From positions 17,923 to 81,922 of the forward strand of contig JAERSW010000042.1 in assembly GCA_016845305.1 (NCBI GenBank): a stretch of 64,000 nucleotides of DNA, read 5' to 3'. The notes under the pieces are model-generated. The model saw nothing but the letters and a program-made list of their open reading frames with translations, ran no database searches and had not been told where the DNA came from. Source of the DNA: Acidimicrobiales bacterium (GTDB lineage Bacteria; Actinomycetota; Acidimicrobiia; Acidimicrobiales; MedAcidi-G1). The first letter of the stretch is position 1, and each line of letters begins with the position of its first letter. Shown here piece by piece: positions 1-55,380 of this stretch. A program made the position numbers and the translations under genes.

Positions 1-726
1 GGAGAAGCCGAGGAGCGCCACCGTCGACACCGGGATGAGGGCGTTGCGGGCCGCCTGTCGCCGTACCCGGTCCTCGGCCAGGCCCTTGGCCCGGGCCATG
101 AAGACGTGGTCCTCGCCGAGCTCCGACACCATCGAGGACCGGGCCACCACGAAAACCGAGCCCAGGCCCACAAGCGTCAGCGTGGTGGCCGGCAGGGCGA
201 GTCGCTCAATGACGTCGACCACCCAGGCCAGGCCGGTCAGGGACTCCGGTGCCGTGGCCCCGTAGACGGGGAACCACCCCAACTGGACCGAGAAGACCAG
301 CATGAGCATGAGCCCCACGAAGAACGCCGGGAGAGCGTCGACGGCCAACACGCCGGCCAGCAGCCCGACGTCCCGTCGCGAGCCGCGTCGCCAACCGGCG
401 GCGAACCCGAGGGCCACGCCCAGCACGGTCGACACCAGGACCGCCGTGCCGACCAGCAGTAGCGACCACCACAGCCGGTCCACGACCACCTCGGACACCG
501 CCCGGCCGTCGCGGACCGAGACGCCGAGGTCACCGCGGGTCAGGTTGGCCAGGTAGCGCCCGAACTGGTCGAGGGACGACCCGTGGAGACCGAAGTCCTC
601 CAGCATCGCCTCGCGCTGTTCAGCATCGACGATCCCCGAGTCCGGCGGGACCAGGTAGTCGATCGGGTCGCCCGGGGCGAGCCGCGGCAGGGCGAAGTTG
701 ACCATCAGGGCGGCGAGGACCACCAC
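1..726 (-). CDS. ABC transporter permease (DppB/OppB type), partial; 3' end lies beyond the window edge
   Basis: Open minus-strand frame reaches position 1, so it has no stop in the window and is absent from the ORF track. My translation (...VVVLAALMVNFALPRLAPGDPIDYLVPPDSGI...) looks like the N-terminal half of a peptide/nickel ABC permease. It lies directly downstream of the SBP gene. Start is uncertain: GTG at 724-726 would truncate TM1, and there is no ATG/GTG/TTG between 727 and the SBP stop at 781-783. Confidence 0.7.
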   Translation of the reverse strand, partial: MVVLAALMVNFALPRLAPGDPIDYLVPPDSGIVDAEQREAMLEDFGLHGSSLDQFGRYLANLTRGDLGVSVRDGRAVSEVVVDRLWWSLLLVGTAVLVSTVLGVALGFAAGWRRGSRRDVGLLAGVLAVDALPAFFVGLMLMLVFSVQLGWFPVYGATAPESLTGLAWVVDVIERLALPATTLTLVGLGSVFVVARSSMVSELGEDHVFMARAKGLAEDRVRRQAARNALIPVSTVALLGFS

Positions 727-780
727 CCCGTACTGGACGGCCAGCCGCGCCCTCCGTGCGATCCCGGGTCGCTCCCCGAC

Positions 781-2541
781 TCAGTCCTCGACCGTGTCGG
801 CGTCCCCGCGGCGACGCCGGAGGCCGACCCCGGCACCGAGCACCACCAGGACGGCCACCACGATCGCGACGATGGCTCCGGTCCCGAGGCCGCCGTCGTC
901 GTCGGCAACGGCGGCCGTCGACGACCCCTTGGCGTAGGGGGCCAGGAACGAACGCTTGGTGAAGGCACCATGTCCCGGATCGTCGATCCATCCGTCATAG
1001 GCCGCCGGTCGGTAGGCCCACCGTCCGTTCGGGTAGTAGAGCGTCACCGCTGGTGCCTCGGCGGCGAAGATCTCCTGGGCCTGCTGGATCAGCGGCTGCT
1101 TGGTGGCCACCGGTTCGTCGAGCGCGTCCTCGAGGATGGCGTCGAAGGCCGGATTGGCGTACCCGCTGAACACTCCGCCCACGCCACGACCGGGCGTGTG
1201 GAAGAAGAAGAACATGTGCTCCGGGTCGACGTGGGCGTGCGACTCGAACACGGCGATGAACATCTCCACGGTCGGAGGACCGTCGGCGCTCTTCTTTCGG
1301 GCGGCAAAGATGGCCGGGGCGTCGAGAGGCTCGACGGTGACGTCGACGCCCAGCGGCGCCAACTGCTCGGCCACCAGCTCGCCGGCCCGAATCTGGGGCG
1401 GTGCCGCGGCGTTGACCAGCAGCGTGAACGCCAACCGCTTCCCGTCGGGGCTGGTCCGGACGCCGCCATCGCCCACCACATAGCCGGCGGCGTCCAGCAA
1501 GTCGCCAGCCGCGGCCGGGTCGTACTCGTGTCCGCCGGTCGGATGGGCCCACGGGGACTGGGGATGGGTCCAGGTGTCGTTGCCGGGCACGGCCAGCCCG
1601 CCTTCGACGATGTCGACGATGGACTGCAGGTCCAGAGACATGCTCATCGCCTTGCGGACCGTGGCGTCCTTCAGGATCGGCTTGCGGGCGTTGAACATCA
1701 GGTACAGCGACTGGAAGCGGCTGCCCTCGAAGACGGCAAGGTCCTCGTTGGCCTGCATCTTCGGCACGAGCGGCGCCGGGAGGTTCCGGGTCACGAAGTC
1801 CAACTCGCCGGTCTGAAGCCCGGCGAAGGCGGCCTGGGCATCAGTGACGACCGGCATGACCAGCGTGTCGACAAGCGGGGCGCCGAGGAAGTAGTCCTCA
1901 TTGGCCTCCAACCGGTAGGAGACGCCGGGGTCGTACTCGACCATCTCGAAGGGGCCGGTGCCCACGGGCAGCGAGGTGGCGTCCTTTCGCGGGTTCTCGA
2001 TGCCCTCCCAGATGTGCTGGGGAAGGATCGGGAGGTCGGCACCTGGCAGGAGCTCGAACGTGGCGACCGGGTCGGCGAAGGTGAGCTCGACGGTGGTGTC
2101 GTCGACCACGGTGGCCGACTCGAAGACCGGATGGTCGTACACGTGATGGCCGTAGCGGCCGGGCCCTCCGTCGGCGGAGAAGTACCGGAACGTGAAGGCC
2201 ACGTCGTGGGCGGTGAAGGCCTCGCCGTCATGCCAGGTCACGTCGTTGCGAAGGGAGACCGTCCAGGTCCGCAGGTCGGCGGACGCCTCGGCCGACTCGG
2301 CCAGCCAGGGCTCCGGGTCAAGGCGGCTCTGCGACCAGAACAGGGTGTCGTACACGAGCATCGTGAAGTCGTGCGTGATGGGGAGCGCCTTGGGCGGGAT
2401 GAACGGGTTGAGGTTCTTCTCCGCGGCGTGAAGCCCGATGCGTACCACCACCTCCTCGTCGTCCTGGGCGACGGCTGCCGGAGCGGACACGGCGGCGGCG
2501 ATCGAGAGGGCGAGGGCGATGCAGAGCAGTCGTATACGCAT
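781..2541 (-). CDS. ABC transporter substrate-binding protein, family 5 (peptide/nickel type), with an unusual C-terminal TM anchor
   Basis: Internal ATG (cat 2539-2541) of ORF 781..2928 gives MRIRLLCIALALSIAAAVSAPAAVAQDDEE, a Sec signal with an AVA-Q site. The body is typical of family-5 SBPs. C-terminus is ...GLGTGAIVAIVVAVLVVLGAGVGLRRRRGDADTVED (TM helix plus basic tail). The long plus-strand ORF 583..2556 is antisense noise. Confidence 0.9.
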   Translation of the reverse strand: MRIRLLCIALALSIAAAVSAPAAVAQDDEEVVVRIGLHAAEKNLNPFIPPKALPITHDFTMLVYDTLFWSQSRLDPEPWLAESAEASADLRTWTVSLRNDVTWHDGEAFTAHDVAFTFRYFSADGGPGRYGHHVYDHPVFESATVVDDTTVELTFADPVATFELLPGADLPILPQHIWEGIENPRKDATSLPVGTGPFEMVEYDPGVSYRLEANEDYFLGAPLVDTLVMPVVTDAQAAFAGLQTGELDFVTRNLPAPLVPKMQANEDLAVFEGSRFQSLYLMFNARKPILKDATVRKAMSMSLDLQSIVDIVEGGLAVPGNDTWTHPQSPWAHPTGGHEYDPAAAGDLLDAAGYVVGDGGVRTSPDGKRLAFTLLVNAAAPPQIRAGELVAEQLAPLGVDVTVEPLDAPAIFAARKKSADGPPTVEMFIAVFESHAHVDPEHMFFFFHTPGRGVGGVFSGYANPAFDAILEDALDEPVATKQPLIQQAQEIFAAEAPAVTLYYPNGRWAYRPAAYDGWIDDPGHGAFTKRSFLAPYAKGSSTAAVADDDGGLGTGAIVAIVVAVLVVLGAGVGLRRRRGDADTVED

Positions 2542-2674: not shown

Positions 2675-3403
2675 TCAGACCAGCAGGTCGGCGATCGACG
2701 CCAACGACGCCAGGGCCGGCGACCCGGGGTCATGGTCGAAGAGCGCGATGCCCCGGGCATCGGCCTCGACCACCGCATCGTCCTCGGGAACCACCACGAC
2801 CTCCACGTCGCCCAACCACTCGCGAACCCGCGCCAGGTCGGCGTCGACGTCGCGGACCTTGTTGGCCACCACCAGGGTCCGTCCCTGCTGCTTCTCCCGG
2901 GCGATGGACAGGGCACGCGCCCCCACATCGAGCGACCGCGGAGTCGGTTCGACCACGACGACGGTCAGGTCGACCTTCTCAGCCTCGAGGCGGGACAGCG
3001 TCCCGAGACCCGCCTCGAGGTCGGCTACCACCGTCGCCGTACCGAAATCACCGGAGCCGAGCAACTGCTCGGCCGACATCCCGCATCAGGGTCAACCGGG
3101 CTCCGGATTCTCGATCCGGGTGATCACGCCCAGGCGGACCCCGTCCGGAGCGTCGGTCCCGAACCTCTCCATGAGTTCGTCCCAACCCGGCGCATGCTCG
3201 ACCCCGCCCTCATCGAGGCGTTCGCGGAGGGTGAGGAGGCGCTCGGTCTCCTGGTCGCCGACGCCGAGGGAGATCCCGAGGTTCGGGTTGGTGTCGCAGT
3301 CGAGGGCGACCACGGCGAGTCCGCGGCGGGCCAACGTCCGGGCCAGCGCCGCTGAGGTGGTGGTCTTGCCCGATCCACCCTTGCCGGTCACGGCGATCTT
3401 CAC
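2675..3403 (-). CDS. CooC/MinD-family P-loop ATPase with two in-frame TGA codons at the C-x-C metal-binding motif (candidate selenoprotein; otherwise a pseudogene)
   Basis: The tail of ORF 3092..3742 (VKIAVTGKGGSGKTTTSAALARTL...RIENPEPG) and ORF 2675..3079 (MSAEQLLGSGDF...VVEPTPRSL...VVANKVRD...) are in the same frame. They are separated only by TGA(3092-3094) CCC TGA(3086-3088) TGC GGG. The GTG start at 3401-3403 overlaps the upstream stop (GTGA). The joined 242-codon product is colinear with CooC (Walker A, G-x-G-C-x-C, D.EAG). Confidence 0.6.
3056..3073 (-). promoter_or_regulatory. SECIS-like hairpin 11-12 nt downstream of the second in-frame TGA
   Basis: mRNA sequence GCCGAGC-AGUU-GCUCGGC: a perfect 7-bp stem plus a flanking G.U pair, with a 4-nt loop containing GU. 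The stem starts 12 nt after UGA 3086-3088 and 18 nt after UGA 3092-3094. Confidence 0.4.
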
Positions 3404-4215
3404 GAGACCTCCACGTCGCGATCGTAGGCCGGGACGAGCCGGTCGACGAGGCCGTCCACCTCGGCCACGAAGGAACCGTCCGGATCGACGTCGAGGGGTG
3501 CCCCCGCATGCCGGTCGCCCTCGACCACGGCGGAGCTCCACGGCACGCGGACCATGACGGCTCGATCCAGGCGGTCCTCGATCCGGACCACGTCCGCCTC
3601 GTCGCGCACCTTGTTGGCCACGACGCCGATGGTCGTCGGACCCCACTCGGCCCGGTCCAGGTGGAGGAGCCGCCGTGCGGTGTGCAGGGACTTGGCGGTC
3701 GGTTCGACCACCAGCAGCGCGCAGTCGGCGTACTTCGCCCAACCGAACATGGCCTGTCGGGTTCCGCCCGGGAGGTCGCCCACCAGGCTCCAGGTGGAGC
3801 GATCAAGACCGTGAACCGTCTCCGACCAGGCGAACTGGGCCCGCTGCACGGCCCAGATCTCGCCCGACGTGTTCCCGAACTGGAGGTAGCGCACGCCATC
3901 CGGACACTCCACGGCGTACCGCTCGATGACGTCGGCCGGTCCGATGCCCGGGGCCAGGACCCAACGGGGACCACCCTCGGGGCCCTCGACCACCGCGTCG
4001 TCGGGGATGGGTCGGTCGTCGACCTCGACGCCGAGCCCGTACGGCAGTCCGGGCAACGGATCGGAGTCCAGGGCCAGGACCGGCTCGCCGCGCCGTGCCA
4101 GGAGACGGGCGAACGTCCCGGCGATGGTGGACTTGCCGGAACCGCCCTTGCCCATGAAGGCCACCCGTACGCGCCCTCCTCCGGCTTTCCCCCCATCGTC
4201 CATGGTCGTCATCAT
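3400..4215 (-). CDS. ParA/MinD/CooC-like P-loop ATPase (no C-x-C motif)
   Basis: 271-aa ORF with RVRVAFMGKGGSGKSTIAGTFARLLARRG (deviant Walker A) and LLVVEPTAKSL...VVANKVRD. It is a paralog of the downstream ATPase, and its stop overlaps that gene's GTG start. Confidence 0.8.
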   Translation of the reverse strand: MMTTMDDGGKAGGGRVRVAFMGKGGSGKSTIAGTFARLLARRGEPVLALDSDPLPGLPYGLGVEVDDRPIPDDAVVEGPEGGPRWVLAPGIGPADVIERYAVECPDGVRYLQFGNTSGEIWAVQRAQFAWSETVHGLDRSTWSLVGDLPGGTRQAMFGWAKYADCALLVVEPTAKSLHTARRLLHLDRAEWGPTTIGVVANKVRDEADVVRIEDRLDRAVMVRVPWSSAVVEGDRHAGAPLDVDPDGSFVAEVDGLVDRLVPAYDRDVEVS

Positions 4216-4250: not shown

Positions 4251-5252
4251 CTACTCGGACCCGACGGCGTTCCGATCGGCGAGGACGTAGAGGTAGACCA
4301 GCGGCGGGAGCACCAGAACCACCAGGACCGCCGAGGCGACGAGCATTCCGGTCAGGGTGGTGGTCGCCCCGGCACCGTCCGCGATGGTCAGCTCATCGAC
4401 GAGGAGCCACGGGTACTGGCCCAGGCCCCAGCCGGCTACCACCGAGCCGACGGCGACGGCTGCAGTGGCTCGGGCCGGCCGGAGCCGGGAACGGGCCAGG
4501 AGGACGAGCGTGGCCACGCCGGCCACCACCGAACCGACCACCAGCGGGAGGCCCCGTCCGGTCAGGCCGTCGAACAGCACCGGGGCGTCGGCACGGAGCG
4601 GGAGGAGGCCGACGGTCGCCACCCCGCCGGTCACCAGGCCGACGGCCAGCGAGCGGCGACGCAGCGCATCGGCCAGGTCGGGCTGGTCGAGCGCCTCGGC
4701 CTCGGCGGCCAGGAAGACCCCGGCCAGGAAGGCGCAGGCCAGGACGGCCAGGACGCCACCGAGGATGGAGGCCGGAGTCGCCCAGGCGCCGAGCTCTGCG
4801 GCCCGTCCGTCGACCGGGACCCGCCCCGAGGCCACGGCTCCGGCGATCGTCCCCATGAAGAACGGCGTGATGACCGACGAGGCGGCGAAGGCCACGCCGG
4901 CCACCCGGGCCCACCGGACGGTCGGGGCGAACTTCCGGTACGCGAATCCCGCCCCCCGCAGCACGATCCCCAGGCCGACCAGCCAGAACGGCACGGCCAG
5001 CACCCGCATGAGGGCGGCGAAGGCGGTCGGGAAGCCGGACCACAGGAAGACCAGGACGAAGACCAGCCACACGTGGTTGGCCTCCCACACCGGCCCGATG
5101 GAGTGGTCGATCAGGCGTCGGACCGGGGCGCCACGTTCGGCGTCGCCGGCGGTCAGGTCCCAGGCCCCGACGCCGAAGTCGGCCCCACCGAAGACCGCGT
5201 AGGCGACCACCGCGGCGAACATCACAACGGCGACGGCCTCGGCGGGACTCAC
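4251..5252 (-). CDS. cydB: cytochrome bd ubiquinol oxidase subunit II
   Basis: VSPAEAVAVVMFAAVVAYAVFGGADFGVGAWDL... is a typical CydB N-terminus. The GTG start 5250-5252 overlaps the cydA stop 5249-5251 (GTGA). Confidence 0.92.
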   Translation of the reverse strand: MSPAEAVAVVMFAAVVAYAVFGGADFGVGAWDLTAGDAERGAPVRRLIDHSIGPVWEANHVWLVFVLVFLWSGFPTAFAALMRVLAVPFWLVGLGIVLRGAGFAYRKFAPTVRWARVAGVAFAASSVITPFFMGTIAGAVASGRVPVDGRAAELGAWATPASILGGVLAVLACAFLAGVFLAAEAEALDQPDLADALRRRSLAVGLVTGGVATVGLLPLRADAPVLFDGLTGRGLPLVVGSVVAGVATLVLLARSRLRPARATAAVAVGSVVAGWGLGQYPWLLVDELTIADGAGATTTLTGMLVASAVLVVLVLPPLVYLYVLADRNAVGSE

Positions 5253-6613
5253 CGTCCTCCCTCCTCGCCGTATGCGGGCCCCAGGTCGCGGGCGCCGGTC
5301 GACCACCGGCGAGACATCGATCGGACCACCACCACCGCGCCGACGGTGAGCAGCGAGTAGACCACGACGAGCGCCCCGAAGGTGAACCAGATGTAGCCGG
5401 CGTCGGTGACCGCGTCAGCGGTCCGCAGGTACCCGTCGACGATCCATGGCTGCCGGCCGACCTCGGTGGTCACCCACCCGGCCTCCATGGCCACCACCGT
5501 CAACGGACCGGCGGCAGCCAGCGCCCACAGCAGGGGCCGGCTACCGACCAGGTCACGGGTTCGCCACCACCGGACGACCACCCACCCGGCGACGACGACC
5601 AGGGCGGAGCCGATGCCCGCCATCACCTGGAAGGCGAAGCGCACCACGTTGACGGGCGGCCGGTCGGCGGCGGGCACCGAGTCGAGCCCGACCACCTCGG
5701 CGTCGAAGTCGTTGTGGGCGAGGAAGGACAGCAGGCCCTCGACCGGCACATCGATGCCGCCACGGAGCTCGCCGTCGACGAACACCCCGCCGAGGGTCAG
5801 CGGGGCCCTGGACTCCGTGTGGGCCAGGCCCTCGATGGCCGCCAGCTTCACGGGCTGCTCATCGGCGATCCGCTGGCCGGCCATGTGCCCGACAATGGGC
5901 TGCAGGGGGGTGGCCACCGCGGCGAAGGCCAACGGCACCAGGAGGCCGAGCCGGTGGGCCCGGTCAGTTCGTCCCCGGAGGGCCCCGACCGCGTAGACGC
6001 CGGCGACCAGGAACCCGACGACCATGTAGGCGGCGAGGAACATGTGCACGAACTGGACGCCGACGGCCGGGTTCAGGATGGCCGCCACCGGATCGACGTC
6101 GACCACCTCGCCGTCGACGACCCGAAACCCGGTCGGTTCGTTCATCCACGAGTTGACCGACAGGACGAAGAACGACCCGACCACCCCGGAGGCGATGACC
6201 GGAAGGAGCATCAACGAGTGGAGACGGCCCGGGAGGCGACCCCACCCGTAGACGTAGATGCCGAGGAAGATCGCCTCGGTGAAGAAAGAGAGCCCCTCCA
6301 GGGTGAAGGCCAGGCCGACCACGTCGCCGTACCGCTCCATCAGGCCCGGCCACAGCAGGCCCATCTCGAAGGCGAGGATGGTGCCCGACACGGCACCGAT
6401 GGCGAAGAGGACGCCGGCCACCTTCGACCACCGCTTGGCCAGGTCGAGGGCCACCTCGTCGCCGCGGAGCCCCCGGCGGTGGAGGACCAGGATCATGGCC
6501 GGAAGGGCCATCCCAAAGCAGGCCAGCACGATGTGCCAGCCCAGCGAGAGCGCCATCTGGCTCCTCGCCGGCAACAGGGCTGAACCGGCGGCCAGGCACA
6601 GGATCTCAGCCAT
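5249..6613 (-). CDS. cydA: cytochrome bd ubiquinol oxidase subunit I
   Basis: MAEILCLAAGSALLPARSQMALSLGWHIVLACFGMALP... matches CydA. ATG at 6611-6613 is preceded by GGAGGGG. Confidence 0.93.
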   Translation of the reverse strand: MAEILCLAAGSALLPARSQMALSLGWHIVLACFGMALPAMILVLHRRGLRGDEVALDLAKRWSKVAGVLFAIGAVSGTILAFEMGLLWPGLMERYGDVVGLAFTLEGLSFFTEAIFLGIYVYGWGRLPGRLHSLMLLPVIASGVVGSFFVLSVNSWMNEPTGFRVVDGEVVDVDPVAAILNPAVGVQFVHMFLAAYMVVGFLVAGVYAVGALRGRTDRAHRLGLLVPLAFAAVATPLQPIVGHMAGQRIADEQPVKLAAIEGLAHTESRAPLTLGGVFVDGELRGGIDVPVEGLLSFLAHNDFDAEVVGLDSVPAADRPPVNVVRFAFQVMAGIGSALVVVAGWVVVRWWRTRDLVGSRPLLWALAAAGPLTVVAMEAGWVTTEVGRQPWIVDGYLRTADAVTDAGYIWFTFGALVVVYSLLTVGAVVVVRSMSRRWSTGARDLGPAYGEEGGR

Positions 6614-6769
6614 ATCCCCTCCGGGGCACATGGTAGATGTCACCAGCACCTAGTGGCCACCGGGTTCCGGCTGGCCGACGGACCACGGAGACCAGTGGAT
6701 CCCGGCCCGGTACGTTCCTGCCGACCGACCACTCGATGCCTTTCCGACATGTCCCCAGGGAGTCGCCCG

Positions 6770-7611: not shown

Positions 7612-7687
7612 GGGTCGCTAGCTCATCGGGTAGAGCAGGGGACTTTTAATCCCAAGGTGCCGGGTTCGAGCCCCGGGCGACCCACCA
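7612..7687 (+). tRNA. tRNA-Lys (anticodon TTT)
   Basis: GGGTCGCTAGCTCATCGGGTAGAGCAGGGGACTTTTAATCCC...GGGTTCGAGCCCCGGGCGACCCACCA. Acceptor arms GGGTCGC/GCGACCC pair, the anticodon loop is CTTTTAA, the T-loop is TTCGAGC, and CCA is encoded. Confidence 0.95.
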
Positions 7688-7726: not shown

Positions 7727-10700
7727 ATGGCCCGGTCCTCCCGGACGCTCGTCTCGGTCGTCGCCGTCGCCCTGCTCGCCTCGTCGTGTGGGGGCGGTGG
7801 GCAGGCCGTCGCCCCGTCGTCGTCCTCGAGCACGTCGGCGACGGTCACCGTCGACCCGACCACGACGGCCGACGCCGAGGTCGCTGCAACGACCACGACG
7901 CTCGTCGTCGACACCACAGCGACGACGGAGGCCGCCACCCCGTCGACCCCCGCTCCCGAGGAGGACGCCTCCTCGACGACGGTCGACCCCGCATCGAGCA
8001 CGACGGCCGGAACCAGCGCCTCCACCACCTCCGCGGCGGCCACCACCGCGCCACCGACCACGCTGGCGGAGACGACGACCAGCACCACGACCGCCGGGGC
8101 ATCGACCACCACGGCCGCCGCCGAGCCGGAGCCGCCGACGTTCGACCTGCGCTCGGCCTTCCGGTGCGTGTCGGGGATCCTCGGCCACGACGCCTGGCAC
8201 ACGTGGCGCCGCCGCGCCCCCACCGCTGACGAGACGGCCCGCACGGCCGACTGCCCGGCGGCCACCCACGACCTCCGGTGCGTCGACCGCACGCTGGGCC
8301 TCCAGCGGTCCGACCAGGTGTGGCTCGGGAGCGACGAGCCCACGGCGGCCGAGTTGGAGGCCCTCGAGCCGTGCCGACTCGGAACCACCGACGACCCGAC
8401 CCAGGACACGGGATCGGCCGCGGGCACCACCACGACCGCCGCCCCCGCGACCACCACGACGGCCCCACCGGCCGAGCTGGTGGGCGTCCTCCGATCCGTC
8501 CGGACGCCGGAGGCCGCCCACCGGGCAGCCACGGAGACCGGCTGCTCCACCATGAGTGGTGACCGGTGCACCGAGCTCTCCTGGGAGCAGGTCGGACCAC
8601 TCCGCAACGGAGGCGTGGCCGCCCTGGCCGTCGCACCGACCGACCCGAACGTCGTCTACGCCGGATTCGACGCCAACGACATGAGCTTCTGGCGCTCGGA
8701 CGACGCCGGCGCCACCTGGCAGCAGGTCCACGCCTCGGCCCACACGTCGTCCATCGCCGTCGACCCGACCGACGCCTCGACGGTCCTCTACAGCGTGATC
8801 GAAGGCTGGGTCTACCGCTCGGACACCGGGGGCACGTCACCCGACCAGGTGATGGACCGCCGAAACACCGGCGACTACCGCTTCGGTGCGGTCGCCTACG
8901 CCCCGGGCGACCGAAACGTCGCCTACGCGGCGGCCACCGGCACCCGCGAGGGCGGCGAACAGCGCGGCCGATCGGCGGTGGTCCTGGCCAGCGGCGACGG
9001 CGGGCGGAACTGGCGGGAGGTCGGGTCGTGCGGTGGGTGCGGGATCGTCCACGCCATCGCCGTCGACCCCGCCGACGCCCGGTCCCTGGTCGCCGCCACC
9101 GAGATGGGCATCCGCACCAGCTCCGACGGGGGCGCCACGTGGTCCTCCGACCGCCTTCCCCGCCTCGGCTGGGGCGACAACGTGGTCCTCGACGTGCAGT
9201 TCCGTCCCCACTCGTCGACCCACCTGCTGGCCGCCACGTTCGACCACGGCGTCCTGCGCAGCACCGACGGTGGTACGTCGTGGACGCGATCCAACGACGG
9301 CCTGACCGACACCATGGCCCACGAGGTCCGGTTCGCCCCGAACGCCGGCGACGTCGCCTACGTCACCACCCACGACGGCGTGTTCCGCACCGACGACGGC
9401 GGCCGGACCTGGGAGCCGCGATCCGGTGGCCTCGACTACCGGTACGTCCACGCCATCGCCGTCGACCCCCGCGACCCCGACGTCGCCTACGTCGGGACGG
9501 CGTCGGAGTTGAACCAGCTCCACGCCCAGCACATGCAGGAGGGCCTGCACCGCGGCGAGGGCCTCTTCAAGACCACCGACGGCGGGCGCACCTGGACGCT
9601 CAGCGACTCGGGCATCGAGGAGTCGCGCATGGTGATGGTGACCCCGCACCCCGTCCGGCCGTACGAGGTGTGGACCGGTGCCTCGGCAGGACGGTCCGGC
9701 TACCTGTCCATCGACGCCGGGAGCTCCTGGGCGGTCTCGTCGACACGTGCCTCGCACTACCCGATGGTGTCGGCGTGGTCGTCGACCTTCCCGAGCGTCC
9801 AGTACCTGTCCAGCCTGTCCAGTCGCGTCGAGTTGATCCGCAGCGCCGACGAGGGCCACACGTGGACCTCGTTGTCGGACGCGCTCGGTCGGGGCGTCAG
9901 CGCCCGCAGCCGCGCCAACGGCCAGTACGACGAGTCGCGGCACTTCCACGCCCACACCCACGGCCTGGCCGTCGCTCCGTCGGATCCCGACGTGGTCTAC
10001 GCCGGGACGATCTCCCACCCCAGCCAGTTCGAGCAGTACACCCTGGACGGCGCCCACATCTTCCGGTCGACCGACGGCGGCGACACCTTCACCGAGGTCG
10101 ACGAGGGCTTTCCCACCGCCACCGACACGTCGATCAACGCCATCGTGATCCACCCCACGAACGCCGACATCGTCTACGTGATGACCTCCTCCTACGAGTC
10201 CATCGAGGGCATCGGCATCTACCGGTCGACCGACGGCGGGGACTCGTGGCAGGCCATCAACGACGGCCTCGACCTCGAGACCAACGACCTCCAGATCGAT
10301 CCCGTCGACCCCCGGATCCTCTATGCGGCCACGGCCAGCGGCGTCTACCGGACCACCGACGGCGGCGACAGCTGGCACCTCCGCTCCAACGGCATCTTCG
10401 ACGGGTTCTCGGGGTTCCCGACCCGACGGGAACGCGAGGTGGTCGACCTGGCCATCGACCCGGTCAACCCCAACGTCCTGTACGCCACCGGCTTCAAGGG
10501 CGTCTACCGGACGAAGGACGGCGGCGAGAACTGGTACGTGGCCAACGGCGACCTCCCCGTCGAGTCGTGGCGGGGACACGGCGCCTTCGGGCACGACCGC
10601 AACATCGAGGTCGACGCCACCGGGCAGGTGGTCTACGTCCTCCTCGGCACCCGGAAGCCCGACAACTACGACCCGGTCCGCATGTACCGGGCCGTGCTCG

Positions 10701-10993
10701 GCACCCCGGAGGCCCGCACCTGGACGTTCGCCGCCGGTGGCCGGACCATCACCGTCGAGACGACCTCCCACCTCTCCGGCCTGGTCGTCGACCTCGAACG
10801 GGATCGGGTCCGGTTCGTGGCCGCCGGACCCGGTGGGACCGAGGCCCGGACCACCGTCACCATCCCGTCCGAGTTCGTGGACGGCCCCGCCGGCGTGACC
10901 GTCGACGGGATCTCCGTCCCGGCCACGATCGACGGACAGACGATCACCTTCGCCTACCCCCACGACGGCGAGGGCACCGTCGTGGTCCGCTGA
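7727..10993 (+). CDS. large secreted lipoprotein with about 12 BNR/Asp-box repeats (double beta-propeller, GH74/sortilin/Ycf48-like)
   Basis: MARSSRTLVSVVAVALLASSCGGG carries a lipobox. A roughly 260-aa Thr/Ala/Ser/Pro low-complexity linker follows. Repeated S/T-x-D-G-G-x-T/S-W motifs include SDDAGATW, SGDGGRNW, SSDGGATW, STDGGTSW, TDDGGRTW, TTDGGRTW, STDGGDSW, TTDGGDSW and TKDGGENW. Confidence 0.88.
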   Translation: MARSSRTLVSVVAVALLASSCGGGGQAVAPSSSSSTSATVTVDPTTTADAEVAATTTTLVVDTTATTEAATPSTPAPEEDASSTTVDPASSTTAGTSASTTSAAATTAPPTTLAETTTSTTTAGASTTTAAAEPEPPTFDLRSAFRCVSGILGHDAWHTWRRRAPTADETARTADCPAATHDLRCVDRTLGLQRSDQVWLGSDEPTAAELEALEPCRLGTTDDPTQDTGSAAGTTTTAAPATTTTAPPAELVGVLRSVRTPEAAHRAATETGCSTMSGDRCTELSWEQVGPLRNGGVAALAVAPTDPNVVYAGFDANDMSFWRSDDAGATWQQVHASAHTSSIAVDPTDASTVLYSVIEGWVYRSDTGGTSPDQVMDRRNTGDYRFGAVAYAPGDRNVAYAAATGTREGGEQRGRSAVVLASGDGGRNWREVGSCGGCGIVHAIAVDPADARSLVAATEMGIRTSSDGGATWSSDRLPRLGWGDNVVLDVQFRPHSSTHLLAATFDHGVLRSTDGGTSWTRSNDGLTDTMAHEVRFAPNAGDVAYVTTHDGVFRTDDGGRTWEPRSGGLDYRYVHAIAVDPRDPDVAYVGTASELNQLHAQHMQEGLHRGEGLFKTTDGGRTWTLSDSGIEESRMVMVTPHPVRPYEVWTGASAGRSGYLSIDAGSSWAVSSTRASHYPMVSAWSSTFPSVQYLSSLSSRVELIRSADEGHTWTSLSDALGRGVSARSRANGQYDESRHFHAHTHGLAVAPSDPDVVYAGTISHPSQFEQYTLDGAHIFRSTDGGDTFTEVDEGFPTATDTSINAIVIHPTNADIVYVMTSSYESIEGIGIYRSTDGGDSWQAINDGLDLETNDLQIDPVDPRILYAATASGVYRTTDGGDSWHLRSNGIFDGFSGFPTRREREVVDLAIDPVNPNVLYATGFKGVYRTKDGGENWYVANGDLPVESWRGHGAFGHDRNIEVDATGQVVYVLLGTRKPDNYDPVRMYRAVLGTPEARTWTFAAGGRTITVETTSHLSGLVVDLERDRVRFVAAGPGGTEARTTVTIPSEFVDGPAGVTVDGISVPATIDGQTITFAYPHDGEGTVVVR

Positions 10994-32798: not shown

Positions 32799-33641
32799 TC
32801 AGGCTAGGAGCCAGTCGGCCGGGGTCGGTCCGTCCGGATAGAGGCGTTGCTGGAACCGACGCATCCCGGCCAGCCAGCGGTCGACGTCGTCGCCCTTGCG
32901 GCGGACGTACTCGGCCACGTCCGGATGGGGCAGGACGTGGAAGCGCCCGTCGGCCAGGGCCTCGACCACCGTGTCGGCCAGCTCGGCCGCCGTCAGCACC
33001 CCGTCGACCGCGGCGGCCCCGGACGGCCCGTCGCCGGGCATCAGGTCGGCCGTCGGGCTGTTGGTCGTGATGTTGGTGGCCACCGCCTGCGGGCACAGCA
33101 CCGACACCCCGATGCCCCGGTCGCCGTAGGTGACGCTGATCCACTCGGCCAACGACACCGCCGCGTTCTTGGTCACCGAGTAGTGGAGCGAACCGATCTG
33201 GGTCAGCAGGCCGGCGGCCGACGAGGTGTTCAGCAGGTGCCCGCCACCGGCCGCCACCATGTGGGGGATGGCGTACCGGGCCGCGTACAGGTGGGCCATC
33301 ACGTGGACGTCGAACATGCGGTGCAGCTCGTCGTCCGGCGCCTCGAGGCCACCGACGGTGACGTAGCCGGCGTTCGACGCCATCAGGTCGATCCGTCCGT
33401 GGCGCTCCACCGTGCCGTCGACGAGGGCCCGGACCGCGGCCTCGTCGGACACGTCGCAGCCCGTGGCCTCCACCGCCGTCGCCCCGCCGGCGAGCCTCCC
33501 GGCCAGGGCCTCCACGCCGGCGACGTCCCGGTCGGCGGCCACCACCGCGGCCGCCCCCTCGGCGGCGAACCGCTCCACCATCGCCTCGCCGATCCCGCTG
33601 GCCGCACCGGTCACGACCACCACGCTGTCCCTGAGTTCCAT
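32799..33641 (-). CDS. SDR-family oxidoreductase
   Basis: Internal ATG (cat 33639-33641): [21 protein letters not shown]...NTSSAAG...[13 protein letters not shown] (TGxxxGxG motif and YxxxK). Confidence 0.88.
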
Positions 33642-35468: not shown

Positions 35469-35541
35469 GCCCCCATCGTCCAGCGGCCTAGGACGCCTGC
35501 CTTTCACGCAGGTAACACGGGTTCGAATCCCGTTGGGGGTG
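35469..35541 (+). tRNA. tRNA-Glu (anticodon TTC)
   Basis: GCCCCCATCGTCCAGCGGCCTAGGACGCCTGCCTTTCACGCAGGTAACACGGGTTCGAATCCCGTTGGGGGTG. The anticodon loop is CTTTCAC. Confidence 0.92.
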
Positions 35542-35573
35542 CGAAGGACGTCCGGTTCCGATCGGACGACCGG

Positions 35574-35651
35574 GGTCCTGTGGTGCAGTTTGGAGTGCAC
35601 GCCGGCCTGTCAAGCCGGAGGTCGCGGGTTCAAATCCCGTCAGGACCGCCA
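35574..35651 (+). tRNA. tRNA-Asp (anticodon GTC)
   Basis: GGTCCTGTGGTGCAGTTTGGAGTGCACGCCGGCCTGTCAAGCCGGAGGTCGCGGGTTCAAATCCCGTCAGGACCGCCA. Acceptor arms GGTCCTG/CAGGACC pair. Confidence 0.93.
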
Positions 35652-35655
35652 CCGT

Positions 35656-35677
35656 CGCCCGCCCTCCGGGGCGGGCG
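35656..35677 (+). other. GC hairpin between tRNA-Asp and tRNA-Phe (processing or terminator-like)
   Basis: CGCCCGCCC-TCCG-GGGCGGGCG, a perfect 9-bp stem. Confidence 0.6.
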
Positions 35678-35683
35678 GTGCAC

Positions 35684-35759
35684 GGTCGGGTAGCTCAGTT
35701 GGCAGAGCGTCCGCCTGAAAAGCGGAAGGTCACCGGATCGACGCCGGTCCCGACCACCA
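35684..35759 (+). tRNA. tRNA-Phe (anticodon GAA)
   Basis: GGTCGGGTAGCTCAGTTGGCAGAGCGTCCGCCTGAAAAGCGGAAGGTCACCGGATCGACGCCGGTCCCGACCACCA. Confidence 0.94.
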
Positions 35760-51484: not shown

Positions 51485-52532
51485 CGACGGATCCCAGGGT
51501 GCCGACCGGCGCACCGCCCAGCATCGGACCACTGGTGTGGAGGTGGCAGGCCACCTCGCCGCCGGCCAGGGTCGGGGTGAACTCGGGGAACGACTCCCGA
51601 CAGACGTCCATCACGTGCGGGCAGCGGTCGGCGAAGGGACAGCCGTCCTCCGGCGCGTTGCCGACCGACCCGGCCGTGCCGATGGTCAGCGCCCGGCGAC
51701 GGGCCGACCGCCCGGTCTGGACCTCCGGATCGGGATCGGGGATCGAGGCCAGGAGGAGTTCGGTGTAGGGATGGGCCGGGGCGTCACAGATCCCGTCGGA
51801 CGGCCCCGTCTCCACGATCCGGCTGTGGTACATCACGGCGATCCGGTTGCACACGTGGCGCACCACGGCGAGGTCGTGGGCGATGAACAGGTAGGCCGCC
51901 GACGTCTCCCGCTGGAGTCGCTCCAGCAGGTTGATGACCTGGCTCTGGGTCGACACGTCGAGCGCCGAGACGGGTTCATCGAGCACCAGGAGGTCCGGGT
52001 CGGTGGCCAGGGCACGGGCCACGGCGATCCGCTGGCGCTGCCCTCCCGAGAACTCGTGGGGGTACCGGTTCAGGTGGTGGCGCTGGAGGCCGACCTGCTC
52101 GAGCAGGTCGCCGGCCCGGTCCTGGCGGGCCGCTCCGGACAGGCCGGCATGGATCCGCAGCGGCTCGCCCACGATGTCGCCCACCACCATCGACGGGTTC
52201 AGCGAACCCACCGGGTCCTGGAACACCACCTGGACGGCTCGACGGAACGACCGGGGGACCGATCCCTCGAACCCCGTGACGTCGAAGTCGCCCACCCGGA
52301 TCCGGCCGGACCGGGGCCGGATGAACCGGAGCACGGCCCGTCCGATGGTGGTCTTGCCCGAACCCGACTCACCGACCAGCCCCAGCGTGTCGCCCCGGGC
52401 GATGCTCAGGCTGACGTGCTGGACGGCCCGCACGTCGGGCAGTCGCTGCCAGGGCAGGAACCCCCGTCCACCCGGGAAGGTGATGCTGAGATCGTCGATC
52501 TCCAGGACGAGATCGTCGGCCGGACCGGTCAC
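51477..52532 (-). CDS. ABC transporter ATP-binding protein (DppF/OppF type)
   Basis: [27 protein letters not shown] and LVLDEPVSALD, plus the C-terminal oligopeptide-type extension with Cys residues. Confidence 0.92.
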   Translation of the reverse strand: MTGPADDLVLEIDDLSITFPGGRGFLPWQRLPDVRAVQHVSLSIARGDTLGLVGESGSGKTTIGRAVLRFIRPRSGRIRVGDFDVTGFEGSVPRSFRRAVQVVFQDPVGSLNPSMVVGDIVGEPLRIHAGLSGAARQDRAGDLLEQVGLQRHHLNRYPHEFSGGQRQRIAVARALATDPDLLVLDEPVSALDVSTQSQVINLLERLQRETSAAYLFIAHDLAVVRHVCNRIAVMYHSRIVETGPSDGICDAPAHPYTELLLASIPDPDPEVQTGRSARRRALTIGTAGSVGNAPEDGCPFADRCPHVMDVCRESFPEFTPTLAGGEVACHLHTSGPMLGGAPVGTLGSVGA

Positions 52533-54454
52533 GATGCCGCCCCTCCGTGGGCCCGGACGCCGCGCAGCACGACCTCACCGGCCCGGATGCACCGGACCGA
52601 CGAGGCCCCGACCGTCTGCAGGGGCACCGGGCCGACCCGACAGGCGTCTCCGGCATGGGCGCACCGATCGGCGAAATGACAGTGGTCGGGCCACTCCCAG
52701 GGCGGCGGGACGACCCCCGGGATGGTCGGGAGCTCGCCCGACCGGGCCTCGTTGCGGGGAATGGCCCGGATGAGTCCCTCGGTGTAGGGGTGCTGCGGGT
52801 CGGCGAACACCTCGGTCAGCCGACCGGTCTCCACGATCTCTCCGGCGTACATGACGGCCACCCGGTCGGCCAGGTCGGCGACCACCCCGAGGTCGTGGGT
52901 GATGAGCAGGACCGAGACCCCGAGGTCCCGGCTGAGGTCGCCCACCAGGTCCAGGATCTGGCCCTGGACGGTCACGTCCAGGGCGGTGGTCGGCTCGTCG
53001 GCGATCAGGAGCTTCGGTTCACAGGCCAGGGCCATGGCGATGACCACCCGCTGGGCCATCCCGCCGGAGAACTGGTGGGGATAGGCGTCGATCCGGCGAC
53101 CCGGATCGGGGATCCCGACCAACTCCATCAACTCCACGACCCGGGCCCGGGCCTGGCGGCGACCCATGCCCAGGTGCACCTCGAGGGGCTCGGCCACCTG
53201 GCGGCCCACCGTGTAGGCCGGGTTCAGCGCGGCGGACGGCTCCTGGAAGATCACCCCGATCTCGTGCCCCCGGATCCGGCGGAGCTCGTCGAAGTCCAGC
53301 CCCACCAGCTCGCGCCCGTCGAGGCCGATCGACGCCGCCGAGGCCAGCCCCGGATCGGGCACCAGCCCCATGATCGACATGGCGGTGATGGACTTCCCGG
53401 ATCCCGACTCGCCGACGAGGGCCATCACCTCTCCCCGACCGATGTCCAGGTCCACGCCGGAGACCACCGAGACGTCCTCGGTCTCGCCGGGCCGCGGGAA
53501 CCGGACGGACAGGTTCCGGATGGTGAGCAGTGCATCGTCCGACGGGGGGACCGGGTCCGACCCGGGATCCACGGCCTCGACGTCGCCGACCCCGACCCGA
53601 CCGCCACGGGCCTCCCGGGCGAAGGCGTCCCGCAGCCCGTCGCCGAACACGTTGAAGGCGATGACGGTCAGGAACACGGCGATCCCCGGGGGGACGGCCG
53701 GCCAGAAGCTCTGGTCGATCGAGTCCTGGGCGTCGCGCAACATCCGCCCCCAACTGGCCTGGTGCGCGCTGGCCCCGATGCCCAGGAAGCTGAGGGCCGC
53801 CTCGGCCAGCACCGCCTGGGCGAACAGGAGCGTGGTCTGGACGATGAGGGGCGGCGCGATGTTCGGGAGGATGTGCTTCCACATGATCCGGCGATCGGTG
53901 GCGCCGGCGGCCCGGGCGCCATCGACGTAGAGCTCCTCGCGGGCCGCGAACACCTCGGCCCGGGTGAGGCGGGTGATGATCATCGAGTACACGACGCCGA
54001 TGGCGAACATGGCCGTGGTCAGGCCGGTCCCGACCGCGGCGATGATGGCCATGGCCATGACCACGGCGGGCACGGCCACCACGGTCTCCACGAAGCGCAT
54101 GACGATGCGGTCCACCCACCCGCGGAAGTAGCCGATGACCAGGCCGAGGGGGACCCCGACGACCAGGGCGATGAGCACCGCCTCGGCGCCGGCGAACAGG
54201 GCGTACCGGGCGCCGTAGAGCAGTCGGGTGAAGATGTCCCGACCGACCAGGTCCGTCCCGAGGAGGTACTCCCCGAACGGAGGGAAGAGGAAGTCCTGGA
54301 AGCGGGTGGCCACGTTGGGATCGTGCGGGGTGAGGAAGCGAGCGCCCGCCGCCACCAGGACCAGCACGACCAGGTACCCGCCCCCGACCAGCGAGACCCG
54401 GTTCCTGAGGAACCGCGACCAGAAGCGGCTCCGCGCCGACTGGTGGGCGCTCAT
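52529..54454 (-). CDS. fused ABC permease (DppC type) and ATP-binding protein (DppD type)
   Basis: ATG 54452-54454 overlaps the upstream stop (ATGA). The N-terminal roughly 300 aa is a permease (...[23 protein letters not shown]...). The C-terminal half has [26 protein letters not shown] and [11 protein letters not shown]. Confidence 0.88.
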
Positions 54455-55380
54455 CCGGGCCGCACCTTCGGATTGAGCCACGCATAGGCCAGGTCGAGGA
54501 CGATGTTCACCATGACGACCACGAACGTGGTGACCATCACGAAGGCCAGGATGATCGGCGTGTTCTTCCGCAACACGGCATCCACGCCGAGGCTGCCCAG
54601 GCCGGGCACGTTGAACACCGATTCGACGAAGATGGCGCCACCGATGAGGGCCGAGGTCTGGAAGCCGGCCAGCGAGACAATGGGAATCGCCGCGTTGCGC
54701 AGGGCGTGGCGCCGGATGACCCGCCGGACGGGGAGTCCCTTGGCCAGGGCGGTCCGGATGTAGTCCTTCTGGAGGACGGCGATCATCGACGACCGGGACT
54801 GCCGGGCGATGGCCGCGGCGGCCGACAGGCCGAGGGCGATGCACGGGAGTACCAGCGAGTGGAGCCACCCGCCGATCGTCTCGGTCCGGGTGTTGGACCA
54901 GATGGCGGGGAACCACCGGACCTGGACGGACAGGAAGTAGGCCAGCAGGATGGCCGCCCAGAAGTTGGGGATGGCCATGCCGAACGAGGACACCACGGTC
55001 ACGATCCGGTCCGGAAGCCGTCCGGCCTTCAGGGCAGCCAGGATTCCCAGACCGACCCCGGAGACCAGGGCGATGGCCAGGGCACCGAAGACCAGGGTCA
55101 GCGTCACCGGGGCCCGGTCGCCGAACATGGTCAGGACCGACTCACCGGTGAACCAGTCGGTCCCCAGGTCGAAGCGCACCACGTCGGTGAGCCAGTCGCC
55201 GTACTGCACGAGCAGCGACCGATCCAGGCCCAGTTCAGCGCGCTTCTCGGCGATCGACGCCAGGGAGGCATCCTCTCCCAGCAGGGCCGCTGCCGGATCC
55301 ACCGGGTTGAACTGGATGAGGAAGAACACCAGCGTTCCGGTGAGGAACATGAGCGGAATGGCGGCGAGCAGTCGGCTCAC
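54451..55380 (-). CDS. ABC transporter permease (DppB type)
   Basis: 309 aa: ...DYIRTALAKGLPVRRVIRRHALRNAAIP... (EAA loop). Confidence 0.92.
   Translation of the reverse strand: MSRLLAAIPLMFLTGTLVFFLIQFNPVDPAAALLGEDASLASIAEKRAELGLDRSLLVQYGDWLTDVVRFDLGTDWFTGESVLTMFGDRAPVTLTLVFGALAIALVSGVGLGILAALKAGRLPDRIVTVVSSFGMAIPNFWAAILLAYFLSVQVRWFPAIWSNTRTETIGGWLHSLVLPCIALGLSAAAAIARQSRSSMIAVLQKDYIRTALAKGLPVRRVIRRHALRNAAIPIVSLAGFQTSALIGGAIFVESVFNVPGLGSLGVDAVLRKNTPIILAFVMVTTFVVVMVNIVLDLAYAWLNPKVRPG

Follow-up and report, generated by a model that had tools for sequence, protein, structure and literature searches.

A probable double-selenocysteine gene for a MinD/CooC-class ATPase in an Acidimicrobiales bacterium and its orthologs in public genomes

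We analyzed a stretch of 64,000 nucleotides (nt; hereafter the window) from an Acidimicrobiales bacterium (MedAcidi-G1; GenBank assembly GCA_016845305.1, contig JAERSW010000042.1, positions 17,923–81,922 of the forward strand), with a G+C content of 71.6%, in which a minus-strand gene at 3403..2675 is divided by two in-frame TGA codons. This gene is very probably intact and a genuine selenoprotein gene, with two selenocysteines (Sec, U) encoded in the arrangement UGA-Pro-UGA. Its product is a MinD/CooC-class P-loop ATPase whose nearest characterized relative is CooC, and the two proposed Sec residues take the place of the cysteines that form the metal-binding motif of that family. The evidence is comparative: the same pair of TGA codons, followed by a hairpin with conserved nucleotides and compensatory base changes, recurs in orthologs from many public genomes.

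The reading frame running from 3403 to 2675 is interrupted only at 3094–3092 and 3088–3086, where the local minus-strand text reads CCG GAG CCC GGT TGA CCC TGA TGC GGG ATG TCG GCC GAG CAG TTG CTC GGC. In the list of open reading frames (ORFs) the gene is cut in two, one part being the tail of 3092..3742 and the other 2675..3079. A first-pass annotation, made from the letters alone, had described an otherwise intact 242-codon gene split by two TGA codons in one frame, and the sequence and the ORF list agree with it on this point. Translation of the joined product likewise confirmed that the Walker A, D-x-EAG, and VANKVRD motifs are retained, and the GTG start is indeed coupled to the upstream paralog as GTGA, the overlap lying at 3400–3403. 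The predicted read-through peptide across the junction is ...IENPEPG-U-P-U-CGMSAEQLLGSGDFGTATVVADLEAGLGTLSR. In a public protein collection the C-terminal piece of 134 amino acids (aa), which begins with an ATG at 3079, is filed as a separate gene (P0121; NCBI and Logan). This separate filing, together with the absence of any full-length match above 68–70% identity, indicates that the two codons are evidently taken as stops by public pipelines.

For the family searches, Cys was placed at both stops. The product matched Pfam CbiA (CobQ/CobB/MinD/ParA nucleotide-binding domain) with E = 2e-16, and NCBIfam (release 20) gave no model at cut-off and holds no family-specific model for it. The best sequence match in the Protein Data Bank (PDB) was CooC1, 3KJE (phmmer, E = 1.4e-15, residues 1–234), with MinD next at 3e-7; identity to CooC1 is only ~25%. 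Among 5.8 billion protein clusters we found 989 homologs, the top ones being ~245 aa long, 55–68% identical, and derived from Acidimicrobiia and other Actinomycetota, under the names “AAA family ATPase” or “CO dehydrogenase maturation factor” (the latter a JGI name). An AlphaFold (AF2) model of a 68%-identical Cys homolog (P0001; mean predicted local distance difference test score, pLDDT, 89.8), in which the core is predicted least confidently at the CPCC loop, matches MinD, FleN, CooC1 (template modeling score, TM, 0.72), and NifH. The product is assigned to the MinD/CooC class because of the CbiA domain, the best sequence match to CooC1, and the fold of this homolog model. Best sequence match and fold thus uphold the earlier CooC-type assignment; judged on structure only, MinD and FleN are on a par with CooC1. 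The product is not a HypB: it had no Pfam or NCBIfam match to HypB or CobW, and NF041053, the model of a CobW-related selenoprotein, was not among its NCBIfam matches.

The intersubunit Ni/Zn site of CooC1 is built from two C-x-C motifs, one from each subunit. The CooC family is marked by a deviant Walker A motif, GKGGxGK[ST], and a C-x-C motif ~100 residues past the P-loop, and the window protein has both, the second in the form U-P-U. Both TGA codons fall on the C-Y-C of CooC1 in the phmmer alignment, and in an alignment of 25 homologs they fall on the near-invariant Cys104 and Cys106 of N-P-E-P-G-C-P-C-C-G-L-S-P-E-Q-L-L-G; the two alignments together substantiate the first-pass claim that the stops sit exactly on the two CooC cysteines. 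Cys107, the next residue, is invariant among these 25 homologs, and CPCC or CMCC is present in at least 110 of 120 homologs.

The TGA pair was then sought in public sequences with two codon patterns. The metagenome scan used CCN(10)-TGA-CCN-TGH-TGY-GGN-NTN(7)-GAR, in which the second position could be TGA, TGC, or TGT and the hairpin was left free. At least 62 of the 120 matches listed were true orthologs, all of which read G/D-TGA-P-TGA-C-G, and the listed matches with Cys at the second position were chance matches that had no flanking homology. The genome scan, over one genome for each of 185,579 species, used CCNNNN-TGA-CCN-TGA-TGY-GGN-NTN(7)-GAR-CAR and returned 104 loci, every one an ortholog with P-[GD]-U-P-U-C-G. 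The TGA-CCN-TGA arrangement is thereby present in at least 166 further independent public contigs from ~100 species, and closed long-read chromosomes of metagenome-assembled genomes (MAGs) carry the same two TGA codons (carriers include OZ241886.1, OY763490.2, OZ244195.1, OZ243946.1, OY730477.1, and OZ242297.1).

The hosts of the Sec forms are MAGs, mostly of Acidimicrobiia (Acidimicrobiales, Ilumatobacteraceae, Microthrix, Aldehydirespirator), followed by Nitriliruptoria (Egibacteraceae, Euzebyales, Nitriliruptorales), Solirubrobacterales, Chloroflexota, Dormiibacterota/Limnocylindria, and three bins with unlikely labels. The latter (L124, L140, and L210, labeled Saprospiraceae, Polyangiaceae, and Saccharimonadales) hold Sec genes with near-identical motifs, like those of Acidimicrobiia or Chloroflexota, and are most simply explained as mis-binned contigs rather than true hosts. 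Two U-P-U-C copies were found in one Microthrix MAG (L134 and L151) and in one Egibacteraceae MAG (L127 and L170). At L220, two copies lie ~2.8 kb apart; the upstream part of the second is unlike the conserved N-terminal region of the family, and this copy may be a partial duplication.

From these loci 131 complete genes were extracted, 122 of them unique, with lengths of 241–275 aa and exactly two internal stops each. Identity to the window protein ranges from 49 to 73% among the Sec forms and, over all pairs, reaches down to 44% (median 59%), from which it follows that the orthologous contigs do not derive from a single contaminating sequence. The first position is TGA in 122/122 unique orthologs, as the search pattern required. 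Upstream of the UGAs the ratio of nonsynonymous to synonymous changes (pN/pS) amounts to 0.38, and downstream of the hairpin to 0.58 (pS is saturated at ~0.6); these values indicate purifying selection on both halves of the Sec-form genes. The residues of the D-L-E-A-G motif are kept in the Sec forms, so the frame stays in use past the UGAs. These organisms also use TGA as an ordinary stop, since 58 of the 122 genes end in it; so does the upstream paralog in the window.

Two readings that deny the codons any function can be judged on these data. A pseudogene, that is, a Cys-type CooC-like gene hit by two independent nonsense mutations, would account for the two internal stops and for the broken gene in the ORF list, but it is exceedingly improbable given the identical TGA pair in the other contigs, the lack of further stops or frameshifts, the purifying selection on both halves, and the retained 4-nt start/stop overlap with the partner gene. 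The first-pass annotation had already called decay unlikely and had proposed to check orthologs for Cys or TGA at the two columns; the existence of orthologs with Cys at both and of others with TGA at both, the recurrence of the pair at identities down to 44%, and the finding of scattered stops or frameshifts in none of the 122 unique genes all come out in its favor. A sequencing or assembly error that turned TGC into TGA twice would have only the rarity of the pattern in its favor, and its probability is negligible, with the same codons recovered in independent assemblies from many projects and technologies, closed long-read MAG chromosomes included. On such comparative grounds, decay, sequencing error, and a lineage-specific accident are all excluded as sources of the TGA pair.

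Alternatively, the gene could be truly split, a ~103-aa P-loop fragment and a C-terminal fragment starting from the ATG at 3079 forming a two-piece ATPase. Gene callers annotate it in this way, with the 134-aa piece as a gene of its own, and in the window this ATG sits two codons past the second UGA. The ATG is not conserved, however, and orthologs have Leu, Val, or Ile at this place (CTG, CTT, TTG, CTC, GTN, ATC). Pro105, Cys107, and Gly108, located between the stops or just past them, are invariant as amino acids and free at their synonymous sites (in the 122 Sec forms Cys107 is TGC in 67 and TGT in 55), so these codons are translated. Furthermore, no frame shift across the junction was seen in any of the 122 genes, and a split would sever the metal-binding loop right at the ligands. 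We regard a two-piece ATPase as very improbable and continue with the reading of one gene with two Sec codons.

Downstream of the second UGA the mRNA can fold into the hairpin GCCGAGC-AGUU-GCUCGGC (18 nt, 3073–3056), which starts 12 nt past that codon, or 11 nt if a closing G.U pair is included. A spacer of 11–12 nt between UGA and stem is close to that of the minimal E. coli fdhF element. The sequence, the pairs, this spacing, and the GU in the loop had all been given in the first-pass annotation and stand after inspection of the sequence and its fold. The core motif of the hairpin, GAGCAGTTGCTC, is unique in the window (3059–3070). Like the E. coli fdhF-type Sec insertion sequence (SECIS), the element is an in-frame stem-loop just past UGA with a small loop containing G and then U; it differs in its short perfect 7-bp stem, 4-nt loop, and lack of a bulged U, in apparently serving two UGAs, and in being constrained also by the peptide E-Q-L-L. 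The consensus of bacterial SECIS elements (bSECIS; PMC13188914) has a loop of 3–9 nt, a stem of 4–16 bp, a G at loop position 1 or 2, most often with G or U as the next base, a distance of 16–37 nt from UGA to the apical loop, and a minimum free energy (MFE) of at most −7.5. For both UGAs the present hairpin lies within these limits, with a loop of 4 nt, a stem of 7 bp, distances of 25 and 19 nt, and a median MFE of −11.4.

The hairpin is encoded by a conserved A/P-E-Q-L-L-G peptide, in which GAG/CTC and CAG/CTG are reverse complements. Because the codons for E-Q-L-L are mutual reverse complements, a stem may arise by accident in a G+C-rich genome, and the mere presence of the hairpin, to which the first-pass annotation gave too much weight, is the weaker part of the evidence; the case is carried by frozen synonymous sites. 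In the Sec forms, the codons of E112-Q113-L114-L115 are GAG (121/122), CAG (122/122), TTG (122/122), and CTC (119/121), and the flanking codons for residues conserved to the same degree (Pro102, Pro105, Cys107, Gly108, and Ser110) show 1–2 bits of synonymous entropy. The TTG at L114 gives the loop A-G-U-U, present in 122/122 Sec forms, whereas the seven Cys-form control genes mostly use other codons there (GAGCAG-CTCCTG in two, and GAGCAG-ATGCTC, GAACAG-TTGCTG, GAGCGT-CTCCTG, GAGCAG-TTGCTG, and GAGCAG-CTGCTC in one each). The exact hairpin motif was found in 118/122 Sec forms as against 0/7 Cys forms (p = 3e-9).

In 116 distinct sequences, 97.4% of the stem positions are paired, and two of the pairs show compensatory changes. 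The outermost pair is G-C in 69 (Ala GCN...Gly GGC) and C-G in 33 (Pro CCN...Gly GGG), and the third pair is C-G in 73, U-A in 29, and U-G in 18; the U-A form reads GCT...AGC, where a synonymous substitution on the opposite side accompanies the Gly-to-Ser replacement. The covariation score was 0.220, compared with 0.111 in column shuffles, none of 500 of which reached it, and at most 0.091 in slid-partner controls. The expected conservation of the hairpin was therefore found: it covaries, and among the forms compared only those with TGA conserve its nucleotides. In our reading of these alignments, it is the frozen synonymous sites, TTG and CTC, that make the hairpin convincing.

Several observations weigh against a double-Sec gene with a shared hairpin. 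Genes for tRNA-Sec, selA, selB, and selD were found neither in the window nor in related loci totaling ~1.2 Mb: ARAGORN detected no tRNA-Sec in either, and tblastn with E. coli SelA, SelB, and SelD returned nothing in the window and 225 loci save a weak SelD match in L192, which we rejected as probably a HypE-like protein of the AIRS family, the same locus having given a HypE match. Two of the seven Cys forms can form a comparable stem, so that the hairpin is in part a by-product of E-Q-L-L, and the control set of seven genes is small. The energy of the 61-nt local fold is unremarkable relative to shuffles (z = −0.97), which, next to the covariation and the frozen sites, makes the support for the hairpin comparative and not thermodynamic. 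No Rfam SECIS family matched the window at the gathering threshold or positions 2950–3150 at E up to 10, an uninformative result given how few bacterial SECIS elements Rfam includes. Both scan patterns fixed TGA at the first position and the genome pattern fixed it at the second too, with TAG, TAA, and C-x-U forms outside their scope. Finally, we know of no bacterium in which one hairpin has been shown experimentally to serve two UGAs 6 nt apart. As to other tRNA genes, the window holds a lone tRNA-Lys (7612–7687, plus strand) and a tRNA-Glu/Asp/Phe cluster (35469–35759, plus strand).

The capacity of the source genome to decode Sec is assumed here. In the same class, 84 of 84 complete Actinomarina genomes have selC, selA, selD, and a divergent selB (bioRxiv 10.64898/2026.04.03.716425), and the Sec trait is also found in several other Actinobacteria. 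The absence of Sec machinery from the window would suit UGA read-through independent of selenium, in which the hairpin stimulates decoding by a near-cognate or suppressor tRNA (e.g., for Trp, Cys, or Gly), and the full-length product, clearly selected, fits any read-through mechanism. Such read-through would not explain why the UGAs lie exactly on two metal-ligand cysteines, the classic signature of Sec/Cys exchange, nor why the hairpin has a SelB-type loop (G-U at loop positions 2–3) and bSECIS spacing; Trp or Gly would abolish the metal site, and Cys codons would be cheaper than misinsertion of Cys. With Sec usage documented in Actinomarina as well, we consider read-through without Sec improbable and favor decoding as Sec.

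In the mechanism that we propose, SelB carrying Sec-tRNA(Sec) would be recruited to the single hairpin and decode the first UGA. The ribosome would then read Pro and reach the second UGA after moving only 6 nt, with the stem still outside the ribosome. At that point the stem would be 12 nt from the codon in the A site, and a second SelB complex would bind the same hairpin. With a single hairpin, and UGAs 25 and 19 nt from its loop, the hairpin would have to be used twice. Closely spaced Sec pairs are known computationally from the UxxU and UxxxxU families tabulated in PMC13188914, and a 2007 paper (PMC1976440) reports a rhodanese-related sulfurtransferase with U-x-U. The description of U-x-U as unusual in the first-pass annotation thus stands as regards rarity, but the UxU form of the sulfurtransferase is a precedent.

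To place the Sec forms among their relatives, we built a neighbor-joining tree from the 122 Sec forms, the 120 nearest Cys forms, and a paralog outgroup; it carries no bootstrap values and is indicative only. The Sec forms made up 11 pure clades (61, 22, 15, ... members) interleaved with Cys forms, and parsimony required at least seven switches between Sec and Cys. In all recovered data such a switch affects both positions together: no true U-x-C form was among the metagenome matches listed, and no C-x-U form was present in the fetched loci, no public collection having been scanned for C-x-U. This joint, all-or-none switching is an unexplained evolutionary pattern.

The coordinates of the gene, its motifs, and its neighbors are collected in Table 1.

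Table 1. Features of the candidate selenoprotein gene and of the genes around it (positions in the window).
Feature	Position	Strand	Remarks
Candidate selenoprotein gene	2675..3403	minus	GTG start, 242 codons plus TGA stop (2677–2675); from translation
First UGA, residue 104, proposed Sec	3092..3094	minus	25 nt 5′ of apical loop
Second UGA, residue 106, proposed Sec	3086..3088	minus	19 nt 5′ of apical loop
Cys107 codon TGC, third residue of U-P-U-C (CxCC-type) motif	3083..3085	minus	Invariant Cys in Cys and Sec forms
Deviant Walker A / P-loop GKGGSGKT, residues 7–14	3362..3385	minus	Columns invariant in 25-homolog alignment
D-L-E-A-G, switch-II-like motif, residues 128–132	3008..3022	minus	D128, E130, A131, G132 invariant in homologs
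SECIS-like hairpin	3055..3074	minus	7-bp stem, 3073–3067 with 3062–3056; loop AGUU, 3066–3063; optional closing G.U, 3074/3055; centroid fold
Upstream paralogous CbiA/MinD-type ATPase, 271 aa, no Cys motif	3400..4215	minus	Pfam CbiA; TGA stop overlaps GTG (GTGA, 3400–3403)
Family-5 solute-binding protein (NikA/DppA/OppA type), directly downstream	781..2541	minus	Pfam SBP_bac_5, E = 6e-82
ATP-binding cassette (ABC) permease, 5′ part (NikB/DppB type), cut by window edge	1..770	minus	G+C at third codon positions (GC3) 0.92; Pfam BPD_transp_1
cydA (6649..5249) and cydB (5306..4251), cytochrome bd oxidase	4251..6649	minus	Pfam Cyt_bd_oxida_I, E = 2e-125; Cyt_bd_oxida_II, E = 3e-61

On the minus strand of the window the genes follow in the order cydA, cydB, paralog, selenoprotein gene, SBP_bac_5, and permease; a link of cydAB to the pair of ATPase genes is uncertain. 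Of 167 loci searched by tblastn, 152 contain the paralog. In 111 Sec loci it could be placed immediately upstream, 82 of these showing a 4-nt ATGA or GTGA overlap, and it has no conserved Cys. The window also encodes, at a long distance from the ATPase pair (51543–55314, minus strand), a second opp/dpp/nik-like ABC transporter; its two permease and two ATPase genes are 34–44% identical to ABC genes of the Cys-form locus L231. Elsewhere in the window, a 1088-aa ORF (7727–10993, plus strand) starts with a Thr/Ala/Ser-rich region at the N terminus and continues with many S-x-D-x-G-x-T-W repeats, BNR/sortilin-like by eye. Two further in-frame TGA codons between coding-like stretches were rejected as selenoprotein candidates, that at 61953 being the ordinary stop of an ORF that by eye resembles an acyl-CoA dehydrogenase, and that at 32801 an ordinary stop after which the next gene follows; beyond these two gene ends, the 64 kb held no other candidate of this kind (TGA between coding-like stretches).

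The neighborhoods of related genes bear on function. In seven annotated loci of the Cys form the neighbors include HypC, HypD, HypE, HypF, a HycI-type protease, and the small and large subunits of [NiFe]-hydrogenase, and also complete nik/opp-like importers (SBP_bac_5, two permeases, and two ATPases with oligo_HPY), CbiA paralogs, and DUF1059. No CO dehydrogenase (CODH) gene is present in these seven loci (CooS was not used as a query), and the association of CooC with CODH was thus not seen. In the set of 110 Sec loci that span 6 kb or more, hyp or hydrogenase genes occur in 55 and ABC genes in 45, and 87 carry at least one of the two kinds. Queries with E. coli HypC, HypD, and HypE found homologs in 9–16 loci; HypA and HypB queries found none in any locus, nor HypB any in the window. 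The large subunits of the linked hydrogenases end in SFDPCMPCTTH, from which they are Cys-type, and [NiFeSe]-hydrogenases are ruled out. In the Cys-form loci L228–L232 and in many Sec loci there are three or four CbiA/MinD-type ATPase paralogs, one of them often convergent just downstream, and a small DUF1059 gene; this multi-ATPase cluster looks like a larger uncharacterized module around hydrogenase maturation genes.

From these neighborhoods we lean slightly toward a function of the ATPase in nickel handling for [NiFe]-hydrogenase, and its client is likely a [NiFe]-hydrogenase or a nickel import system rather than CODH. Set against this function are the nature of the argument, which is one of gene neighborhood only, and the window itself, whose 64 kb contain no hyp or hydrogenase gene. 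By analogy with CooC1, an ATP-driven dimer would present selenolate ligands and Cys107 to a metal ion. The dimer partner would be either a second copy of the selenoprotein or the coupled, motif-less paralog, and since this paralog is almost always found upstream, heterodimer and homodimer are equally plausible. The ATPase pair would take over the role of HypB, receive nickel from the importer, or both. In its full form, our proposal is of an undescribed, widespread family of chaperones with a nickel site of two Sec and one Cys that replaces HypB in aerobic Acidimicrobiia and related lineages, and whose genes reuse one SECIS for two UGAs; we advance it tentatively, at somewhat less than even odds. 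The Thermococcales offer a comparable case: their HypB is an Mrp/MinD-family ATPase that has no Sec and acts with HypA in nickel delivery to [NiFe]-hydrogenase. Its role resembles the one suggested here, a likeness drawn from description, and it lacks CxCC nickel binding.

Among known systems, CooC1 of Carboxydothermus hydrogenoformans (3KJE, 3KJG, 3KJH, 3KJI), an ATP-dependent Ni-insertion chaperone for CODH, shares GKGGxGKT and a D-x-x-G switch with the window protein, and its C-x-C aligns column for column with U-P-U. The window protein differs from it in its Sec ligands, third Cys (CxCC-type), and motif-less paralog partner, and in place of cooS/acs the Sec and Cys forms have hyp/[NiFe]-hydrogenase and nik-like ABC genes next to them. 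CobW proteins are G3E GTPases, not MinD/CooC ATPases. The CobW-related selenoprotein (NF041053), listed with the motif UxxC in PMC13188914, is the nearest listed analog, being likewise a P-loop NTPase metallochaperone with Sec for Cys in a Cys-rich metal motif; it belongs to a different NTPase family and has one Sec instead of two. The UxU sulfurtransferase from the metagenome of the Olavius algarvensis symbionts (PMC1976440) also has two UGAs 6 nt apart, but it has an unrelated fold and functions in sulfur transfer, and the second Sec is occasional there, whereas U-x-U is the sole Sec form recovered here.

The inventory in PMC13188914 (May 2026, 119 families) contains no CooC, MinD, ParA, or CbiA-type ATPase and no UxU motif. 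The main texts of a 2022 review and of the deep-Sep and BSepDB papers mention no such family (their supplements and the BSepDB database were outside the search), and a wider literature search found no description of a Sec-containing CooC-like ATPase, in accordance with the first-pass annotation, to which no such protein was known. The double-Sec CooC-like family therefore appears to be undescribed, and it joins two known kinds, bacterial selenoproteins and CooC-like chaperones. With the family missing from the inventories and from NCBIfam, the gene is probably called as two fragments or as a pseudogene in more than 100 species-level genomes.

If the double-Sec reading is true, it would add a selenoprotein family missed by the 2026 list of 119 families and by NCBIfam release 20, and the first Sec-containing MinD/CooC-class ATPase. 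The two UGAs 6 nt apart, with one 18-nt hairpin, form a compact natural system in which to study SelB/SECIS geometry and the efficiency of tandem Sec insertion, and the use of one SECIS for two UGAs would be a natural exception to the strict UGA–SECIS spacing of E. coli. Selenium would here have a non-redox role, in the metal-ligand chemistry of a nucleotide-driven metallochaperone, and would be tied to nickel trafficking and hydrogenase maturation in abundant Actinomycetota of soils, sediments, and the sea.

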